A stretch of DNA of 64,000 bases. It comes from a virus. The position numbers and the translations under genes were made by a program. Location of the stretch: IMG/VR virus record IMGVR_UViG_3300046318_000520, positions 63,704 through 127,703 of that record; one strand, given 5' to 3'. Shown piece by piece: positions 4,901-63,981 of this stretch (its first letter is position 1; each line of letters opens with the position of its first letter). Below the pieces are notes generated by a model. It made no database searches and was not told where the DNA came from. It saw only the letters and a list, made by a program, of their open reading frames with translations.

Positions 4901-5932
4901 TTATAGAACTACGTTGCCTTTTGCAAACTCATAGGGCAGGTCGTAGCTCCGGTTCACATAATGCCATTCAGCTGTCTCTAGCACTGTCTTAAATCTATCT
5001 AACCACTTGTTAAGTGTGGTTTCTGTAACAGGAAAGGAATAGGTTTGGAAAGCCCGGTCAATCACTACAAAGTGAAACTTCACCTGGTACTTATCTTCTT
5101 CTATAAGCTTAAGGTACAATCCGGCTATCATAATCATGTACACCACACATTGTAACCAGTATGAATAGTATTCCACACTCTCCGGGAAGTCTTTCAGATC
5201 CTTAGAGGTTGTCTTGATATCATTGACATAGATGATCTTATTATCATGGTCTATTACAATGTTATCAATGATACCCTTCAGACCAAAGATCTTACCAGGG
5301 ATGTCCATCTGCAGCATCTGCTCGTTGATCACTTCTATGTTATCAAACTCAGAAACATCAGATCCAATAAGACTGCAAACAGCTTTGTTAGTCTTGACAA
5401 TTTCTACGGCACTGCTGCAAAACTTAAAGGTTTCTTCGTCAATGAGGGTTTTAGAACCCTTCATCTTAAGAAAAGACCAGTATATGAATGCTTCAGCTGT
5501 CATTATTTTCTCTAAACGCTGCTTATCAGTCTTAAGACTCTGGTGATAGTTCATATCCATCATAACATCCAGAATAGCTCCTTCAAATTCTTCTAGCTTT
5601 TCCCTGGGATCACCGTTGCGTGAAAGCTCTACATGATGACGGTACACTCTGTCTATTACAATACGGAGGTTACCGGATGGTAGTGTGGCAGGGGAGACCA
5701 TGAATTCTTTTTCAAACTTTTCAGGTTCTAAAAGCAATAGATGAATAAGCTTACCCTGAACCAGATGTGTATCCAGTCTTTCTTCTTTAAGTCCCAGCAC
5801 ATACATTTGATAAAAAACCTGGGGATTCCATATCAGCTTGTTAAGACTACTATAAGAGTAGTAGAACTTGCTGGCGTAAAATGATTTTTCCTGGATCTGA
5901 ATGCTTTCTTGCATTAATTCTTCTAGTTCCAT
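4901..5932 (-). CDS. PD-(D/E)XK exonuclease (RecE/ExoVIII-like)
   Basis: SYSSL, GKLIHLLLLEP, KGIIDN...DIKTT and YWLQ motifs. Confidence 0.8.
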   Translation of the reverse strand: MELEELMQESIQIQEKSFYASKFYYSYSSLNKLIWNPQVFYQMYVLGLKEERLDTHLVQGKLIHLLLLEPEKFEKEFMVSPATLPSGNLRIVIDRVYRHHVELSRNGDPREKLEEFEGAILDVMMDMNYHQSLKTDKQRLEKIMTAEAFIYWSFLKMKGSKTLIDEETFKFCSSAVEIVKTNKAVCSLIGSDVSEFDNIEVINEQMLQMDIPGKIFGLKGIIDNIVIDHDNKIIYVNDIKTTSKDLKDFPESVEYYSYWLQCVVYMIMIAGLYLKLIEEDKYQVKFHFVVIDRAFQTYSFPVTETTLNKWLDRFKTVLETAEWHYVNRSYDLPYEFAKGNVVL

Positions 5933-5954
5933 GATTTAATTTTCTTTTGTATGA

Positions 5955-6395
5955 TTATTTATTCTTTGATGTCCAGGCATTCATTGCCCTGTCACCATGT
6001 CCAATAACACAACTTCTGCAGAGAACAGAAACCCATCCGGATGTTACTCCCAGGTCTTGTTCTGATCCACAGTCCTGGCAGGTGTGATTACACATATGTT
6101 CAGCCATGCTGATCATACCTTCTACAATGTCGTCATGACCGTTGGTATAGAACCTGAGTCCTCCGAACTTTTCTTTTAGCTGCACACAAGTGACCTGCTT
6201 AGGCTTGAGCGGGTCATGCTTGGTATACCGGGTTGTCTTATCTATATAGTTTTGGATAGCACCACAGAGCTTGTCTATAATAGATAGCCAACCGGTAGGT
6301 GCATCCTGCCAATTACACTGTCCGGGATTACCTTCGTAGTCCTGAAAGATCTTGGGATACTTAGCTATTAGTCCTTCTGTAGATATCTTTTCCAT
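5955..6395 (-). CDS. conserved phage protein with C-terminal Zn finger
   Basis: QLKEKFGGLRFY motif; CQDCG...LCRSC. Confidence 0.7.
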   Translation of the reverse strand: MEKISTEGLIAKYPKIFQDYEGNPGQCNWQDAPTGWLSIIDKLCGAIQNYIDKTTRYTKHDPLKPKQVTCVQLKEKFGGLRFYTNGHDDIVEGMISMAEHMCNHTCQDCGSEQDLGVTSGWVSVLCRSCVIGHGDRAMNAWTSKNK

Positions 6396-23936: not shown

Positions 23937-24323
23937 TTAGTTTAAACGGTTCTCTGAATAACCAAGTTCTTTGGCTTCTGCAGGATTCATTTCAATCCAG
24001 CTGTGGCAAGACCGGCATACAGCCAACCATGAAGAGATCACATTGTGATTTTCTCCACGGCCAGCTTTATGGTGTATGTCAGTAGCTGCTAGGGTACAGT
24101 TTAATAAACGGGCCTGACAATGAGAGTGAAGTGCTAGAAACGCAACGCGTTTTTTGCTGTATTCATCCATAGTCTTTTGCATTTTGCTTGATACAGGGGC
24201 AATAGCTTTAGGCTTTTCTATTTTATACCAGCATTCCTTGCAGTATTTTTCTTTACCGTGACTCTTCCAGATCTGTTTGAGCTGCTTGCAACCATGGCAT
24301 GCTTTCAATTTGACTTGTATCAT
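23937..24323 (-). CDS. HNH-like Zn-binding protein
   Basis: CHGC...CKEC; DIHH...VCRSCH. Confidence 0.7.
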   Translation of the reverse strand: MIQVKLKACHGCKQLKQIWKSHGKEKYCKECWYKIEKPKAIAPVSSKMQKTMDEYSKKRVAFLALHSHCQARLLNCTLAATDIHHKAGRGENHNVISSWLAVCRSCHSWIEMNPAEAKELGYSENRLN

Positions 24324-24510
24324 AGTTAGTTTTCTTACGGATGATGACGCCGTCTTTGACGGATTTACCAAGAATACCCACCGGCTGACGGATGTAGGCA
24401 ATTTCTACTGGTCCATCAGAAAGTATCCTGTCAAGAAGTAAACGGTCTACTTCGTTTTCTGGAATAAGAACCAGCTGCGTAGTACCATTTGCTATAAACA
24501 CGTGTTCCAT
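24253..24510 (-). CDS. hypothetical protein
   Basis: 85-aa ORF. Confidence 0.6.
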   Translation of the reverse strand: MEHVFIANGTTQLVLIPENEVDRLLLDRILSDGPVEIAYIRQPVGILGKSVKDGVIIRKKTNYDTSQIESMPWLQAAQTDLEESR

Positions 24511-26226: not shown

Positions 26227-26655
26227 TTAAAATGTGATCTCAACAAGTCCTCTTTTAATGTGTACTTTTTTGGCTTGTAAGATATTTACTTCCAGTTCAT
26301 TAATTCGGAAAACAAAACCTTCAGTTCCTAATACAGGACTAAGATCAGGTGCTTGTGCTACTGTTTTCTTAACAGATACACTTGACCTGGCTTGTTTTAC
26401 TGTTTCAGTAATTCTGTCTGTTGCTGCACGCATTTCACTAAGATTCATTGCAGGTGCTGTAGTCTTTCTTGATTTAGTCCTGCTTCTTCTTTTGCGGGCA
26501 AGAATACCTGCGTCTACTAATTTAGCCCTGATGGCGTTAACCCTACCTAGGGTAGTTTCTGTTAATGCTGCTGTTTCTTTAACAGTAATTCCTGACAGCA
26601 ATAGATCTGTTAAATCTTTCTTTTTCTCTTGTGAGAGTTTTGAAATCCGACTCAT
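26227..26655 (-). CDS. HTH DNA-binding protein
   Basis: GITVKETAALTETTLGRVNAIR; C-terminus paralogous to 26736-27083. Confidence 0.65.
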   Translation of the reverse strand: MSRISKLSQEKKKDLTDLLLSGITVKETAALTETTLGRVNAIRAKLVDAGILARKRRSRTKSRKTTAPAMNLSEMRAATDRITETVKQARSSVSVKKTVAQAPDLSPVLGTEGFVFRINELEVNILQAKKVHIKRGLVEITF

Positions 26656-26735
26656 AAACGAACTGTTTATTGGTTTGAGGTAATAAAAAAAGGGTACCCG
26701 TTGGGATACCCTTTCATGAAAATTTAGCTAAGCTC

Positions 26736-27083
26736 TTAAAAATTAATTTCTATCTTATCTTTTCCTATCGTGACATTCTTGGCCTGATCAGATATCTGTA
26801 CAGATATTCCGTTCACTACAAACTTAAATCCATCCTGTTGTGCTAAAGAGTTTACCGATTGAACAGTGTTGTTAATGTTGCTTATAGGTTCTACTGAACC
26901 AGTGGGACGTTTTCCTCTTACAGAAGGAAACTTTAGTCCCTGGCTTTTAAACCGGTTCTTGTAATTATGTACACTGGAAATAGCCATTCCAAATGCTTTT
27001 GCAATGTCTTCTGGTGCTGTACCTTTTGCAACCATTGTCTTCATTTGCTGTATTTCTGCAGCTGTAAGACGTTTGTTAGCCAT
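26736..27083 (-). CDS. HTH DNA-binding protein
   Basis: GTAPEDIAKAFGMAISSVHNYK. Confidence 0.75.
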   Translation of the reverse strand: MANKRLTAAEIQQMKTMVAKGTAPEDIAKAFGMAISSVHNYKNRFKSQGLKFPSVRGKRPTGSVEPISNINNTVQSVNSLAQQDGFKFVVNGISVQISDQAKNVTIGKDKIEINF

Positions 27084-27172
27084 ACGTTTTATTTGTTTTA
27101 CAATATTACAATTTTTCACATAAAATTTGGATTTTACTATATTTACATATACAATTTCTATTAACAATGCCT

Positions 27173-27268
27173 TGTAACTGATTGATTATCAAAGCGTTTA
27201 TCTGCCTTACAAGCAGAGGGTCGGCGGTTCAAACCCGTCAACTCCCACCTGATAATCAAGTAGTTACA
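27173..27268 (+). mobile_element. probable attP: 3' half of tRNA-Val(TAC) flanked by 19-bp inverted repeats with IHF-consensus sites
   Basis: 27200-27249 has anticodon arm TCTGC-CTTACAA-GCAGA, T arm and acceptor 3' strand but no 5' half; adjacent to the integrase. Confidence 0.85.
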
Positions 27269-27288
27269 CGGTTTACTTAAACTAAAAG

Positions 27289-28164
27289 TTGACCATGTTT
27301 CTTACGAAATCCTTAGATTACGCTTTTGACAAGCTAAATGTGGAGCCACATACCAAAGAGTGTGTGGCTTCTTCATTGAAATACATTCAACTGGCCATAC
27401 GCAAGCTTGCATTCAATCAAATAGAAACCAGTAAGATCACCAGAAAGCATATCAGACTAATCATGGACCAGTGTGAGCAGGATCGTAAGCTCTCACCACG
27501 CAACTGGAATGCATACAGGACGTACCTGGTTATGCTCTTTGAACAGTTGGTAGAATATGAGCTAGTGGATGATAATCCTGTCATACAGCTTAAAAAACGC
27601 CAGGAAGATGATGTGATCAGAAAAGTGCTCACTTTAGAGCAGCGTAATCTGCTAATTAACCACCTTACTGAGACAGATCCTGTGTTTTTACGCTTTATCA
27701 AGATATTCTTTCATTCCGGTGCCAGACGTACTGAACTCTTTAGTCTGCGTATAGAAAACATATACCTGGAAAAAGGATCCTACCAGGTTTTCGTCAAAAA
27801 AGGACGAAAGAAACGCTGGGTTACCAAAGTCATAAAAGACATTGCCCTTCCTTTATGGAGGGAGCAGATCAGTGATCACTTGACCGGATATATATTTTCT
27901 ACAGGATTGTTACCAGGTCCAAATCAGATTAGACCTGAACAGGCAACACGCAGGTGGAAAAGACATGTTAAAGATAAATTGAACATAAAAGCAGATTTGT
28001 ATTCCTTAAAACATCTGAACACAGATGAAGTGTCTGCAGAGCTGTCTTTGGCAGAAGCAGCACGGCTTAATAGTCACTCTATACAGATGGCTAGAAAACA
28101 TTATGCTATAAATGAGTCAACAAGGGAACTGGAACGGTTAAAAAAGATCTCAAACCACTTTTAA
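27289..28164 (+). CDS. int: tyrosine integrase/recombinase
   Basis: SGARRTEL (R), K, LYSLKH, NSHS and HY catalytic positions; SAM-like core-binding N-terminus. Confidence 0.88.
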   Translation: MTMFLTKSLDYAFDKLNVEPHTKECVASSLKYIQLAIRKLAFNQIETSKITRKHIRLIMDQCEQDRKLSPRNWNAYRTYLVMLFEQLVEYELVDDNPVIQLKKRQEDDVIRKVLTLEQRNLLINHLTETDPVFLRFIKIFFHSGARRTELFSLRIENIYLEKGSYQVFVKKGRKKRWVTKVIKDIALPLWREQISDHLTGYIFSTGLLPGPNQIRPEQATRRWKRHVKDKLNIKADLYSLKHLNTDEVSAELSLAEAARLNSHSIQMARKHYAINESTRELERLKKISNHF

Positions 28165-28712
28165 GAAGTCTTTTCTTCTATAAAGCTTTTCAGCAGGTCT
28201 GTGAATCTTCCTGTAGCTTCTGACATAGACTGCATGTCAGGTAGTAATGTCAATGAAACGTTATCTATAAAATTACCGTCTTCATCAACTTTATGACCAT
28301 TACGGATCATTTCGTAGATATTGCACTCTTTTTTAATAATGCTTTCTATATGCACTATTACCACTTCCTTTTTTATAGGAAGGTCTTTCCAGTTTTCATC
28401 TATCTCTTTACCTTTTTCTCCAGTGCGCAACCAGGCTTCAGAAGCCCAGGCTACTGCAAAAACGGTAAACTTTTCTTTTACCTTTTTTGAAATCTGTGGG
28501 AGCATTGTTGTAACAAAAGATTCTTTTCCTTCTTCTGTAAGCAAGCTGTCCGGAATAGGTACATGAATAATAGCCTGGGTTTTTTCTTCATCTTTGTTTG
28601 TTGCAAAGATGGTAAAATGGGGAGGCAGTCCTCCTGCATCACTGGTGCCCTGAACAATCATCTCAAGATAATCAGCTTTAAGCTGTTCAAACTTTTCCAT
28701 TGTAATGTCCAT
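28161..28712 (-). CDS. hypothetical protein
   Basis: 183-aa ORF with SEAW motif. Confidence 0.7.
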   Translation of the reverse strand: MDITMEKFEQLKADYLEMIVQGTSDAGGLPPHFTIFATNKDEEKTQAIIHVPIPDSLLTEEGKESFVTTMLPQISKKVKEKFTVFAVAWASEAWLRTGEKGKEIDENWKDLPIKKEVVIVHIESIIKKECNIYEMIRNGHKVDEDGNFIDNVSLTLLPDMQSMSEATGRFTDLLKSFIEEKTS

Positions 28713-28721
28713 ATAAGGGTT

Positions 28722-29573
28722 TTAAAAGATATACCGGATACCAGCCGGATCAAAGAATTCTGCATACAGTTTGGTAAAGTCCTGTATCATTTGACGTTTA
28801 AGCTGCCATTGGTAACGGATATTATCTGGTGCATACTGGCTGTCTTTCATTTCCTGTATGTCTGGTCTCCAGATTAATGATCTCACCTCATCTGAGTTAC
28901 GAGCATGTTGATGTACATTATGTGTGAGGAATATACACTCACACTTGACATTTATACCAGCTTCCCAGATTTCCTTAAAAAGTTTGTGATACTCAACTAA
29001 CCACCCGTCATGATAAATGATAGGAGAGAAGTTGATGTGCACTTCCATGTGATTCTGTAGCCTAGTAATACTAGCTATACGATCTGAGATTTTATCTGTA
29101 CCTGGTTCTAATACATCAGAATATATCTGAGGCATCAGGCTTACCCTGACTCTGTGTTTGACCGGGTCCATATTGTACCAATAAGGTAACAACATTGTAG
29201 GATACTTGGTAGCAAACGTGCTTTTAGCCTTGGGCTCTACATTGAAATAGTCAAAGACTATTTGCCAATCATAATGCTTACGCATAAGAGCTACGTCAGT
29301 GCTGCATCCAATATCAATAGTGTAATATTCAGAATCTACTTGATTAGGAATCTTCGGCCAGGGTTGTTTTTGTACCCATTGATCTACAGATGCTATAATG
29401 GGTAAGAAGTTTTCATTGACATACACTTTGTCATGATTATATCTACCTACATAGCAGTAGGAGGACATACATCCTCCTAAACAGCCATATATAAAGTTTG
29501 GACTGATAGCATCAGAGCTACGTCCATTGTCTCTTGTAATAAGAGTTTTAGTTTTTTGCTTGATGATCTGCAT
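28722..29573 (-). CDS. spore photoproduct lyase-like radical SAM protein
   Basis: GCLGGCMSSYCYV Cys cluster; ATKY, RVSLMP, EVHINFSPII, ECIFLTH. Confidence 0.8.
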   Translation of the reverse strand: MQIIKQKTKTLITRDNGRSSDAISPNFIYGCLGGCMSSYCYVGRYNHDKVYVNENFLPIIASVDQWVQKQPWPKIPNQVDSEYYTIDIGCSTDVALMRKHYDWQIVFDYFNVEPKAKSTFATKYPTMLLPYWYNMDPVKHRVRVSLMPQIYSDVLEPGTDKISDRIASITRLQNHMEVHINFSPIIYHDGWLVEYHKLFKEIWEAGINVKCECIFLTHNVHQHARNSDEVRSLIWRPDIQEMKDSQYAPDNIRYQWQLKRQMIQDFTKLYAEFFDPAGIRYIF

Positions 29574-29845: not shown

Positions 29846-29931
29846 GGTTTATGGTTTAATTGTTAAAGAAAGAAAAACCTCCAGTGTAGAAACACCGGAG
29901 GAAAATTTATAATAAACAATAAAAAACTAAG

Positions 29932-30710
29932 TGGAGGTAGCCGGATTTGAACCGGCGTCCAAACGAGAAGTCAATAAACAAAGAGATGTTACATGCTTAG
30001 TACTGATATCTACTCCGGGATCCCGTATGTAAATAATCTGCACCGTAGTTTTGATCTGTTCATTATGTATATCCCGGCAACATGTGTTACGTTAGTTCAA
30101 AAGAACTCGTACAACTCATGGGAGGAGCGGCATCATCTCCATTCTGTCTTAAAAACAATATGAACTAATCAGTAGGGCTGACCATGTTATGGTCCGATCC
30201 ACCACCTGGTTTTAGCTATCAAGTGTGAAACCAGGAAAGTCCACTTTTATACAAGAGGGCACAGGAAGCATACAGTCAGAACTTTGAGAGTTCAATACTC
30301 TTAACGGTTCGTTTGGCCCAGTGTTTATTACCCTTTTCCCCAACCGCCTATCGTCTGTTTAGGTTCCTGACAATGTATAATAGGAGGGCTGGATGTACGT
30401 TCATGACTTTGGGAGCGTAACTCTTAATATCAATGGGCTAGTGTTTATCCTCCTGTTTTTTTGGACCTCATCTATCCAATGTTCCAGAGATGCCGTTTTG
30501 CCATTTTCTGTTGCCAGGGATAGCTCCCCCGTAGGTTAGGCTGCTACTGCAACCTCACCGAAGATAGAAGCTAAAATAGCTTCACCTTCTGCTACACGAG
30601 AAGACTGTGTCTTGCCGTTTAAAAGTTAGCTCCGTGATTAAAGTGGTTTGAGAACCTTCCCACTGCATGTTTGCTTACCACTCACAAGTCTGTCAAAACC
30701 TGTTACCCCC
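29932..30710 (-). ncRNA. ssrA: tmRNA, oversized (~780 nt)
   Basis: 5' GGGGGTAACAGGTTTTGACAG; 3' GGACGCCGGTTCAAATCCGGCTACCTCCA; G3:U acceptor pair; CTAAGCATGTA; tag frame 30616-30536 ends VAVAA*. Confidence 0.9.
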
Positions 30711-48217: not shown

Positions 48218-48571
48218 ATGATCAATAACCTATACACCTACAAAGCCACTGTCAACCGGATAATTGACGGGGACACAGCAGAACTGACCATTGACCTGGG
48301 ATTCACCGTAAAGTGGAAATCCACTTGCAGGTTCTATGGTATAAACACACCTGAATTAAAAAGCAGAGATGTAGCCGTCAGAGATAAAGCCAAAGATGCC
48401 AGGCTATATGTAAGCACACAATTAATAACAGGACTGGAAGTGATGATTGTTTCCCGTATGCTGGATAAATATGGCAGGCCACTGGTGGATATTTACTACG
48501 GAAAAGATTTTACAAATCATATTAACCAGGAGCTTGTTGACAAGCAACTGGCTGTGACATATTTATTGTAA
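48218..48571 (+). CDS. thermonuclease (SNase) family protein
   Basis: IIDGDT...GINTPE...DKYGRPL. Confidence 0.88.
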   Translation: MINNLYTYKATVNRIIDGDTAELTIDLGFTVKWKSTCRFYGINTPELKSRDVAVRDKAKDARLYVSTQLITGLEVMIVSRMLDKYGRPLVDIYYGKDFTNHINQELVDKQLAVTYLL

Positions 48572-48661
48572 GGTGGTGAAACTGGCAGACACACCTCCCG
48601 GTCTCGGAGGCGGGAGTGGGGAATCCCCGCTCGTTTGGAGGTTCAAATCCTCCCCTTACAG
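48567..48661 (+). tRNA. class II tRNA-like RNA with atypical anticodon loop (GTC)
   Basis: Acceptor TGTAAGG/CCTTACA-G; CCTCC-CGGTCTC-GGAGG; 8-bp variable arm; GGAGG-TTCAAAT-CCTCC. Confidence 0.8.
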
Positions 48662-48693
48662 CTGATTTATTAATTAACAATAAACCTAAAAAC

Positions 48694-63357: not shown

Positions 63358-63981
63358 ATGAGAAATCTGCTACAGGATAAGTCCAAATACTATAAGGTAT
63401 TTGCGGATGACGTGTATAACTCATTCCGTCAGATGCGTTATGGTATCCACTCTGGCCGCCACGACTCAGAATATGAGGTGGCCTCTATAAGAAAAGAACT
63501 GGTGGACTGGCAATCCAATGCAGATAATGATGCCCTTACACAGACCTCTATCAGCTACTATGGCTGGCTTCCTGTTACGTACACCAGTACAGATGAGTCT
63601 GTTGTCTTTAGCTCAGACATTAATGATCCATATCGTTATCTCAAAATATGCTCTACAAACCCTGTGAACGTTGGTGTGAGTTATAACTACGGTACCAACA
63701 GCAATCAAAACCTGATTGATGTTAATACAGGTGGTTGCGTGACCCGGATCAATTTAAACCCGGCTATTACTATTAATAATTCACAGACTGCACAATACAC
63801 CTTCCACCAGGAAGTTGCTTCTGCCACCTGGACCATTAGTCACTCTCTTGGTTTTGTACCTAATGTGCTTACCATGAATGAGTCTGGCCAGGAAATCATG
63901 GGAGCTGTAAGTTCTGCTACTACTACTACTTTGGTAATTCAGTTCTCTGAGCCTGTAACAGGATATGCATACTTATCTTAA
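63358..63981 (+). CDS. putative tail/structural protein
   Basis: C-terminal WTISHSLG..P.V...I.FS.PVTGYAYL domain. Confidence 0.6.
   Translation: MRNLLQDKSKYYKVFADDVYNSFRQMRYGIHSGRHDSEYEVASIRKELVDWQSNADNDALTQTSISYYGWLPVTYTSTDESVVFSSDINDPYRYLKICSTNPVNVGVSYNYGTNSNQNLIDVNTGGCVTRINLNPAITINNSQTAQYTFHQEVASATWTISHSLGFVPNVLTMNESGQEIMGAVSSATTTTLVIQFSEPVTGYAYLS

Follow-up and report, generated by a model that had tools for sequence, protein, structure and literature searches.

Integration modules that target tRNA genes are textbook knowledge, and the sublocation pattern of their integrases places strand exchange in a loop of the tRNA. In lambda systems, the integrase gene (int) adjoins the phage attachment site (attP), the core of which is identical to the host site, and lambda-type integrases need an N-terminal domain to bridge the arms and the core. 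Cre, XerC/D/H and IntI contain core-binding and catalytic domains only, are about 290–340 aa long, and recognise either short sites with symmetry (lox, dif) or attC in folded form. Two Bacteroidota tyrosine integrases of about 400 aa, IntDOT and NBU1 IntN1, have non-canonical catalytic residues and belong to non-phage elements of Bacteroides, mobilisable or conjugative; NBU1 targets a tRNA gene end. Here we analyze an int gene preceded by a fragment of tRNA-Val(TAC) in a 64-kb stretch of viral DNA, referred to as the window (positions 63704–127703, the right half, of the 127,703-bp linear IMG/VR virus record IMGVR_UViG_3300046318_000520). As in the lambda systems, an integrase gene lies next to a putative attP. 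Judged from its sequence and that of its relatives, the locus is probably a functional site-specific int–attP integration module, carried by a large lake-water phage that is a distant freshwater relative of the crAss phages. As integration modules go it would be an ordinary one; the phage group that carries it is unusual, and the module is set apart by an integrase without an arm-binding domain and by covarying inverted arms around the core.

The module contains the following features, in window coordinates; attB denotes the bacterial attachment site.

26736–27083, minus strand: helix-turn-helix (HTH) gene (ATG at 27083, product of about 115 aa), on the other side of the attachment site from int and divergent from it.
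27084–27172, no strand: intergenic left flank, presumed divergent promoter region, 49–58 of 89 positions common to the relatives L002, L005 and L006.
27173–27191, no strand: left inverted-repeat arm, TGTAACT-GAT-TGATTATCA, phage-specific, 15–17 of 19 positions kept in relatives.
27200–27249, plus strand: 3′ part of tRNA-Val(TAC), positions 26–73 (27200–27247) plus CC, from sequence reading and Rfam.
27200–27268, plus strand: stretch common to the phage and host-like attB contigs (tRNA 3′ part and the first ~20 nt of its 3′ flank), from blastn and alignment.
27250–27268, no strand: right inverted-repeat arm, TGATAATCA-AGT-AGTTACA, 17 of 19 positions common to both host contigs, L140 and L141.
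27295–28164, plus strand: tyrosine integrase, 289 aa, core-binding and catalytic domains only, from Pfam, PHROG and alignment.

The original prediction, a short reading of the window's letters, had placed the 3′ half of a tRNA-Val(TAC), without its 5′ half, directly upstream of a tyrosine recombinase. The fragment contains the anticodon stem TCTGC/GCAGA with the loop CTTACAA and the valine anticodon TAC, then the variable loop, the T arm GGCGG/TTCAAAC/CCGTC, and the 3′ acceptor strand AACTCCC with the discriminator A, followed by CC. ARAGORN called no tRNA at 27200–27249 of the window. The Rfam tRNA model matched 27180–27247, but its score of 22.1 bits (E 0.044) does not reach the gathering threshold of 29, and the 5′ acceptor pairs are non-standard. 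Because ARAGORN made no call and the Rfam match is sub-threshold with unformed 5′ acceptor pairs, we assign the fragment to the 3′ part of a tRNA that has no 5′ half. The int ATG lies 45 nt beyond the end of the fragment; this ATG (27295, MFLTK...), which gives a protein of 289 aa, is a more likely start than TTG 27289. The protein matches PF00589 over residues 113–229 (28.4 bits, cut-off 27.1) and PHROG 1 ‘integrase’ (1.1e-23). Both elements and their order are thus as predicted. The module maps to 90.9–91.9 kb of the 127,703-bp record, and the terminase, portal and capsid genes lie 22–30 kb rightward of it. This position, in the middle of a virus record with a completeness rating of 99%, agrees with the proposal that the window holds the unintegrated form.

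The module is conserved in related phages. Six IMG/VR contigs (L002–L007) encode integrases 64–80% identical to that of the window, and all six are arranged alike, with HTH gene, left arm, tRNA-Val fragment, right arm and int in this order. A portal protein 81–82% identical to that of the window is present on the same contig in three of the five records searched (L003, L005 and L006), and not in the fragment L002 or the unrelated L176. Compared with the window, the tRNA fragment of L002, L005 and L006 is kept at 47–49 of 50 positions and each arm at 15–17 of 19, versus 4 of 8 in the spacer, 49–58 of 89 in the left flank and 8–17 of 26 in the right flank, so that the flanks are 31–65% identical. 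The synonymous sites of int are saturated (proportion of synonymous differences, pS, 0.72–0.78), and the ratio of non-synonymous to synonymous substitution (dN/dS) is 0.06–0.14 in the five pairs, out of six, for which it was computable. A large protein collection contains 21 clusters of proteins of exactly 289 aa, 67–96% identical, on contigs of up to 127 kb.

These data bear on a rival view, in which a strictly lytic phage carries the module as an inactive relic, taken up once from a siphovirus or an integrative element of Bacteroidota and shortened at the N-terminus of the integrase. A relic would fit the absence from the window enzyme of the ~110-aa N-terminal domain present in all homologues of ~390–420 aa, the graded truncation of relatives (integrases of 364, 345 and 336 aa; the 315 aa of another member, P0142, reflect C-terminal read-through only) and the failure of our searches to find an inserted copy. 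It does not fit the low dN/dS at saturated synonymous sites, the 21 clusters of intact 289-aa proteins, the conservation of a non-coding fragment between diverged flanks, or the covariation of the arms described below. Because the fragment is kept, dN/dS is low and intact 289-aa clusters are many, we consider a relic very unlikely; the comparison of relatives supports the view that the module is a stable, selected part of the phage clade.

The fragment points to a host group. A pattern of the T arm and acceptor in which the T loop was left open matched at least 120 loci in genomes. Among the matches listed, 78 of 80 titles are Bacteroidota by name; the 80 titles include 43 Chitinophagaceae-type names (the named genera being presumed members of that family), 16 Alistipes/Rikenellaceae, 12 unspecific names and 7 others. 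Most matches (106 of the 130 listed) are in tRNAs that begin with GGGAGTT, the complement of the phage AACTCCC. The commonest full-length variants among the matches listed agree with the window at 47 of 48 positions, the difference being A57 versus G in the T loop. The fragment variant of L002–L004 and L006, with the T loop TTCGATC, is identical to many host genes among the matches listed; TTCGAAC and TTCGATC are Chitinophagaceae-type T loops, and Alistipes has TTCGAAT. Based on these sequences, the likely hosts are Bacteroidota, most likely Chitinophagaceae, and the suggestion that the fragment could serve as a handle for host prediction is borne out. Conserved among diverged relatives, matching Bacteroidota tRNA-Val(TAC) genes and carrying an acceptor strand that fits the host 5′ strand, the fragment also behaves as the probable attP core that had been proposed.

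Eight of the loci (L021, L045, L059, L061, L095, L100, L132 and L137) contain a partial tRNA-Val copy, with identity starting inside the anticodon stem or loop. To judge by their sequence, these copies are the footprint of other elements inserted at the tRNA-Val gene. A tblastn search with the window integrase found nothing at E 1e-3 in the 120 tRNA-Val loci listed (up to 8 kb each). In seven Bacteroidota loci (L019, L028, L043, L050, L054, L064 and L138), a second tRNA-like sequence lies beside or near tRNA-Val; it has the same T arm and acceptor 3′ strand, another anticodon arm and no GGGAGTT start. When a 16-kb stretch was compared with a phage collection by megablast, the only matches were to 41–50 nt of the fragment, in three unannotated records named ‘Staphylococcus phage’ (OR845009.1, OR845007.1 and OR850214.1). 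The matched stretches are presumably tRNA-Val genes; the anticodon arm is widespread among bacteria.

A metagenome scan for the tRNA end joined to the right arm returned five contigs, three from attP-form phage relatives and two that are host-like (L140 and L141). The host-like contigs carry a whole tRNA-Val gene with a promoter-like upstream region and ordinary genes. Downstream of the tRNA, both read CTTGATAATCA-NNN-AGTTACA, followed by a hairpin with a T run. In blastn against window positions 27200–27268, L141 matches at 65 of 69 positions and L140 at 65 of 70, and the rest of both contigs has no phage match; the right side of L006 matches L141 further still. Two loci from Chitinophagaceae metagenome-assembled genomes (MAGs; L088 and L103) contain TGATAATCAAG after the tRNA, one base further out (3-base spacing). 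Because the host-contig match runs past the tRNA through the right arm, we assign the right arm to the core common to attP and attB; it is not a separate phage element. In the host, its AGTTACA forms half of the stem of the tRNA-Val terminator hairpin. In the phage, it is the left arm that serves as its partner. The left arm itself has no counterpart upstream of the host tRNA-Val gene (7–8 of 19 positions, which is background).

Homologous integrases are found at tRNA genes. Of 401 sampled Chitinophagaceae genomes, 41 contain a homologue at E <= 1e-8, with a best identity of 45%; the chromosomal homologues are 389–422 aa long. Of the 15 best loci, 10 contain a complete tRNA gene immediately upstream of the homologue and in its orientation (Met in four, Val(TAC) in two, His in two, Lys and Arg in one each); four of the remaining five loci end at a contig edge or are broken. 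In one genome (G118:C1:3072020–3115145; L190, L192 and L148), a whole and a partial tRNA-Val(TAC), the latter starting in the D loop, lie 43 kb apart. The integrase of this element is 37–38% identical to that of the window, and GTTACCC arm-type repeats are present on both element arms. By its sequence, the pair is best read as the two junctions of an inserted element, attL and attR, at tRNA-Val(TAC). In a second genome, G179, contig C77 carries tRNA-Val(TAC), then the best homologue, and ends in a portal-like gene. A whole-tRNA-Val scan of IMG/VR returned only L176, in attP form, and L177, with a distant integrase (22% identity). On the viral contig L176 (9660–9900, minus strand), a partial tRNA-Val of the GGGAGTT type lies with a full-length integrase 35% identical to that of the window; it is bracketed by its own inverted repeat, TGGATAAAGAT (13 of 14 positions), with GTCACA repeats on both sides. 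We read L176 from this arrangement as a second, independent attP for the same host gene.

The G179 genome is a 2.2-Mb MAG of the Chitinophagaceae family, with about 30% GC and six integrase paralogues (contigs C77, C173, C284, C67, C145 and C234). Its 23.2-kb contig C13 (L160/L161) represents a distant crAss-like phage, with terminase (TerL), portal, capsid and tail genes in the order of the window and 24–30% identity. Nothing in G179 connects the C77 integrase contig with C13.

The integrases of these Chitinophagaceae elements (G179:C77, G118:C1 and others) and that of the Cellulophaga phage phi46:1, the best named phage hit (398 aa, 33% identity), belong to the same family as the window enzyme. 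They share 33–46% identity over the core-binding and catalytic domains and the same invariant R, K, YSLKH, H and Y. In the elements, as in the window, the tRNA 3′ end is followed by int within ~50–110 nt, in two cases at tRNA-Val(TAC). They differ from the window in three respects: their integrases carry a ~110-aa N-terminal domain, as does that of phi46:1; direct arm-type repeats surround the G118 (GTTACCC) and L176 (GTCACA) sites and by eye none surrounds that of the window; and the elements are seen inserted, unlike the window phage.

The original prediction had also described the integrase, of about 290 aa, as apparently lacking an arm-binding domain. In the alignment, the window integrase begins at the start of the core-binding domain of its homologues, so that their N-terminal ~110 aa are absent; the reading frame upstream of int is open for only 13 nt. 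No separate gene for this domain was found in the 127.7-kb genome (best hmmsearch E 0.24; best tblastn E 0.001 over 38 aa). In a structural model of the 401-aa homologue from G179 (pLDDT 93), the core-binding domain is preceded by three strands and one long helix. The best Foldseek match of this model is full-length lambda integrase (E 5e-10), with 365 aligned columns compared with 276–284 for the lambda 75–356 fragment; the model also matches Tn1549 Int and XerA, and chains of Cre, XerH and IntI at E 1e-6 to 5e-7. Foldseek gives no ranges, and the model is consistent with an N-terminal domain of the arm-binding type in the homologue. The statement thus stands.

A two-domain enzyme raises the question whether the recombinase acts on behalf of the phage's own genome, as Cre-lox or Xer-dif systems do, resolving multimers or maintaining an episomal carrier state, with the tRNA-like core merely as its site. 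Cre, Xer and IntI have the same build and need no arm sites, the homologue model matches Cre, XerH and IntI as given above, and crAss-like phages are described in PMC9980608 and PMC8375218 as persisting without lysogeny modules. A resolution site, however, needs neither a 48-nt copy of a host tRNA with a fitting acceptor strand nor 20 nt of host flank, and the site in the window copies 69 nt from the end of a host tRNA gene. The closest homologues of the enzyme are integrases at tRNA genes, and its nearest sequence relatives are of the heterobivalent type, unlike Cre, Xer and IntI. We regard a recombinase of this self-serving kind as quite improbable.

From how the locus is built and conserved, from its match to host genes and from what its relatives do, we infer a course of integration, including the crossover point and a role for the arms. 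The 289-aa integrase would recombine attP with a tRNA-Val(TAC) gene in a host from the Bacteroidota, most likely from the Chitinophagaceae. The attP core would consist of tRNA positions 26–73 and about 20 nt of the tRNA 3′ flank (27200–27268). The integrase would bind the two halves of the anticodon stem, and strand exchange would probably take place in the 7-nt anticodon loop (27206–27212). We place the crossover there because identity begins at position 26 in the window and inside the anticodon stem or loop in the eight partial bacterial copies. On insertion, the first third of the host tRNA gene would be joined, next to int, to the last two thirds brought in by the phage (attL), and the tRNA gene would stay whole because the acceptor strand supplied by the phage, AACTCCC, matches. 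The 3′ part displaced from the host gene would land behind the phage left arm (attR), where the arms would again bracket the core. Because the region left of attP would move to the far end of the prophage, the inserted int would be cut off from any promoter in that region; it would sit behind a tRNA without the second half of its terminator hairpin.

The arms 27173–27191 and 27250–27268 were proposed to form a near-perfect 19-bp inverted repeat. By eye, they are complementary at 17 of 19 positions, and a repeat search found that they belong to the longest inverted repeat in 26600–28300 (27161–27191/27250–27280, 31 nt, 77% complementary, 58 nt between the arms), in agreement with that proposal. 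Unlike a lambda-type P-core-P′ attP, which works with an arm-binding domain, the window site has one inverted repeat bracketing the core and, by eye, no direct arm-type repeats. The conserved parts of each arm are GTAACT and the near-palindrome TGATWATCA, with 3–4 free bases between them; this single inverted pair brackets the core, and its AGTTAC part resembles, by eye, the G118 repeat GTTACCC. The inverted arms are present in L002, L005 and L006, and a comparison of six sequences shows three arm pairs in which both partners have changed without loss of complementarity. One of the three tracks an A/G difference that also separates the host contigs L140 and L141.

An exact consensus for integration host factor (IHF) in each arm was another part of the original prediction. 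The consensus WATCAANNNNTTR, an E. coli-type motif, is indeed present once per arm (27175–27187, minus strand; 27254–27266, plus strand). The window contains 12 such sites, compared with 5.8 +/- 2.45 expected, and 3 of 100 shuffles reach 12. By eye, the consensus is gone from both arms of L005 and from one of two in L006. Because it is not kept across relatives, we did not adopt the IHF reading; the motifs are present, and an IHF-assisted attP is not supported.

The arms (GTAACT-N3-TGATWATCA) probably bind a dimeric accessory protein, for which the neighbouring HTH protein is a candidate, or extra integrase subunits. The direction of recombination would have to be controlled by something other than arm-core bridging, with the HTH protein on the palindromes as a candidate. 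The HTH gene matches Pfam HTH_7, HTH_29 and HTH_23 at E 8e-4 to 6e-3, each under its cut-off, and, weakly, PHROG 323 ‘transcriptional regulator’ (3.6e-5; ORF, or open reading frame, 26736–27167). Its start, ATGGCTAAC, is kept in L002–L005, and similarity drops past the start. The protein is a candidate regulator or directionality factor.

The same arms could act mainly as structured RNA, that is, as a tRNA-like leader of int with a 19-bp closing stem that controls int expression. Region 27168–27300 folds at -40 kcal/mol (z -5.15), none of 200 shuffles being as stable, and the three stem pairs with two-sided changes still pair in the six sequences; both arms would be on one transcript only in the attP form. 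The tRNA arms themselves supply much of this stability, however, and two inverted copies of one protein-binding site predict compensated changes equally: covariation and fold fit inverted protein sites or a pairing stem alike, and the data do not discriminate between them. A leader also leaves the host-flank match unexplained, and it can coexist with integration. As the main function of the arms, a leader RNA seems unlikely to us.

A broader form of these ideas is a new attP architecture in place of the usual pairing of arm-binding domain and arm-type sites. In it, an arm-less integrase would act on a core held between two inverted arms that covary, the right one copied from the host terminator and the left one kept complementary to it. 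Bridged by a dimeric HTH protein, or paired as a tRNA-like leader RNA that exists only in the unintegrated state, the arms would report the state of the genome and set the direction of recombination. We put this forward tentatively, as a rather doubtful extension of the integration module.

An inverted repeat that adjoins a tyrosine recombinase could also mark the ends of an invertible DNA switch flipped by that recombinase. Just 58 nt lie between the arms, and the orientation of the fragment relative to int is the same in the window, in the six IMG/VR contigs and in the three metagenome contigs of attP form, two of them identical or nearly identical to contigs of that IMG/VR set. The opposite orientation of the 58-nt segment was not seen in the assemblies examined. 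An invertible switch is extremely improbable.

Several observations weigh against a functional integration module. The original prediction had named attL/attR junction reads or related prophages as a check; no attL or attR of the window phage clade was found in IMG/VR, in one metagenome scan or in ~900 sampled Chitinophagales genomes. All six IMG/VR contigs with the left arm and the fragment are in attP form, as are three of the five metagenome junction hits; the other two come from hosts and carry neither int nor any other phage gene. Integrase identity peaked at 45% in 401 genomes of the family, 40% in 401 of the order and 45% in 101 of the genus. Of the 401 family genomes, a single one has a portal gene, at 27% identity and solely on the contig of a distant crAss-like phage. 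The genomes searched were these samples, together with short assemblies, and for this reason the absence of an inserted copy is not demonstrated; with no attL or attR of the phage found, lysogeny itself is a possibility. In the assembled contigs of four sequencing runs (X1–X4), the phage contigs end and resume inside 27201–27229. The loose contig ends belong to tRNA genes with 2–4 differences, and no joint was reported. Breaks of this kind are to be expected at branches of a de Bruijn graph caused by tRNA words common to bacteria, and they give no verdict on attL or attR.

Genes for the control of lysogeny are not apparent near the module either. The repressor and excisionase scan covered 15 neighbouring ORFs with PHROGs and/or Pfam and found no excisionase and no CI-type repressor; 11 of the ORFs had no family hit. 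The weak hits were to an HTH regulator (26736–27167), an HNH endonuclease, a spore photoproduct lyase (SPL) and one unnamed family. The enzyme itself is also unusual. It is without the arm-bridging domain of lambda-type integrases, and throughout the family K stands in place of the second catalytic arginine. Every member has YSLKH as its HxxR box, with K or H at the position expected for the second arginine (Arg II), including in members inserted at tRNAs. Arg I (GARRTEL), the Lys, YSLKH, the late His and the Tyr (KHY) are invariant in 59 family members, and because of this invariance we regard K/H at the second-arginine box as a family trait rather than decay. Finally, a search of 185,579 species genomes for the 47-nt fragment of the window gave no exact match, owing to a single T-loop base: A57 occurs in none of the 130 genome matches listed, although the pattern allowed it.

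The phage was described in the original prediction as crAss-like, which holds at a distance and not in the close sense. PHROG matches identify the terminase (2.7e-62), portal (1.1e-90) and head protein (8.9e-32), and the genome encodes ORFs of 4791, 1759 and 1568 aa, in keeping with very large virion proteins. A tblastn search with TerL matched 129 phage records, all below 60% identity and the best rows at about 25%. The matched records bear the names of uncultured crAss phages and of Bacteroides, Flavobacterium FPSV, Cellulophaga, Azobacteroides and IAS phages, which we take to be crAss-like. The best match of the capsid protein is to Leptolyngbya phage Lbo-JY46 (28% identity over 99% of the protein), followed by crAssE-Sib (23%). 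Because identity to crAss-type and related phages is 25% for TerL and 22–28% for the capsid, the phage can be called crAss-like only in the wide sense, and it may fall outside the formal order Crassvirales. Lbo-JY46 (PP438436.1, L193) is a 125-kb phage of the cyanobacterium Leptolyngbya boryana, listed as unclassified Caudoviricetes with nearly all genes unannotated; no homologue of the window integrase was found in it, and a name search of the literature gave no paper. In freshwater metagenome runs from two studies (X2 and X3), both distinct from the possible source X1, 0.77–0.79 of the sampled words of the window are present and the assembled pieces are 99+% alike; the soil run X4 contains a ~94% relative.

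Other features in the window are as follows.

23937–24401, minus strand: HNH endonuclease (PHROG 740, 7.8e-11), in the early-gene block left of the module.
28722–29573, minus strand: SPL-like radical SAM protein (PF20903, 3.7e-10), immediately right of int.
48567–48662, plus strand: tRNA-Asp(GTC), 96 nt, the sole ARAGORN tRNA in the window and ~20 nt longer than usual.

In the relative L006, an Rfam tmRNA match of ~640 nt (5321–5963, minus strand; 66.2 bits, E 5e-24) lies ~1.5 kb downstream of int, adjoined by a 99-nt tRNA-like match (5971–6069, minus strand). The region corresponds to ~29900–30710 of the window, where ARAGORN called no tmRNA.

No paper in the collection searched describes an int–attP pair in a crAss-like phage. 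The nearest report concerns epsilon crAss-like gut phages, of another branch than the window phage, for which a temperate lifestyle was proposed from repressor and anti-repressor genes and incomplete Parabacteroides prophages (PMC11054128). That study searched for integrase genes and, in its available sections, reports no integrase or attP; the window has int and attP, and no repressor was recognised in the neighbouring ORFs. Integrases are noted in a subset of crAss-like phages in a passage of PMC9980608 that cites PMC7886860, the main text of which does not contain the word ‘integrase’.

CrAss-like phages are among the most abundant phages known. The cultured ones are described as unable to lysogenise, and it is not settled by what means they persist alongside their hosts. 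In the freshwater relatives described here, a whole clade of phages of ~115–128 kb keeps an integrase and a host-matching attachment site under strong purifying selection, and a likely host group, Chitinophagaceae-type Bacteroidota, can be named for these uncultured phages. The compact 289-aa integrase and its ~100-bp site lend themselves to study, and the loss of the arm-binding domain together with the covarying inverted arms constitutes a natural experiment on directionality control in tyrosine integrases. True lysogeny thereby becomes a testable possibility for a freshwater branch related to the crAss phages.

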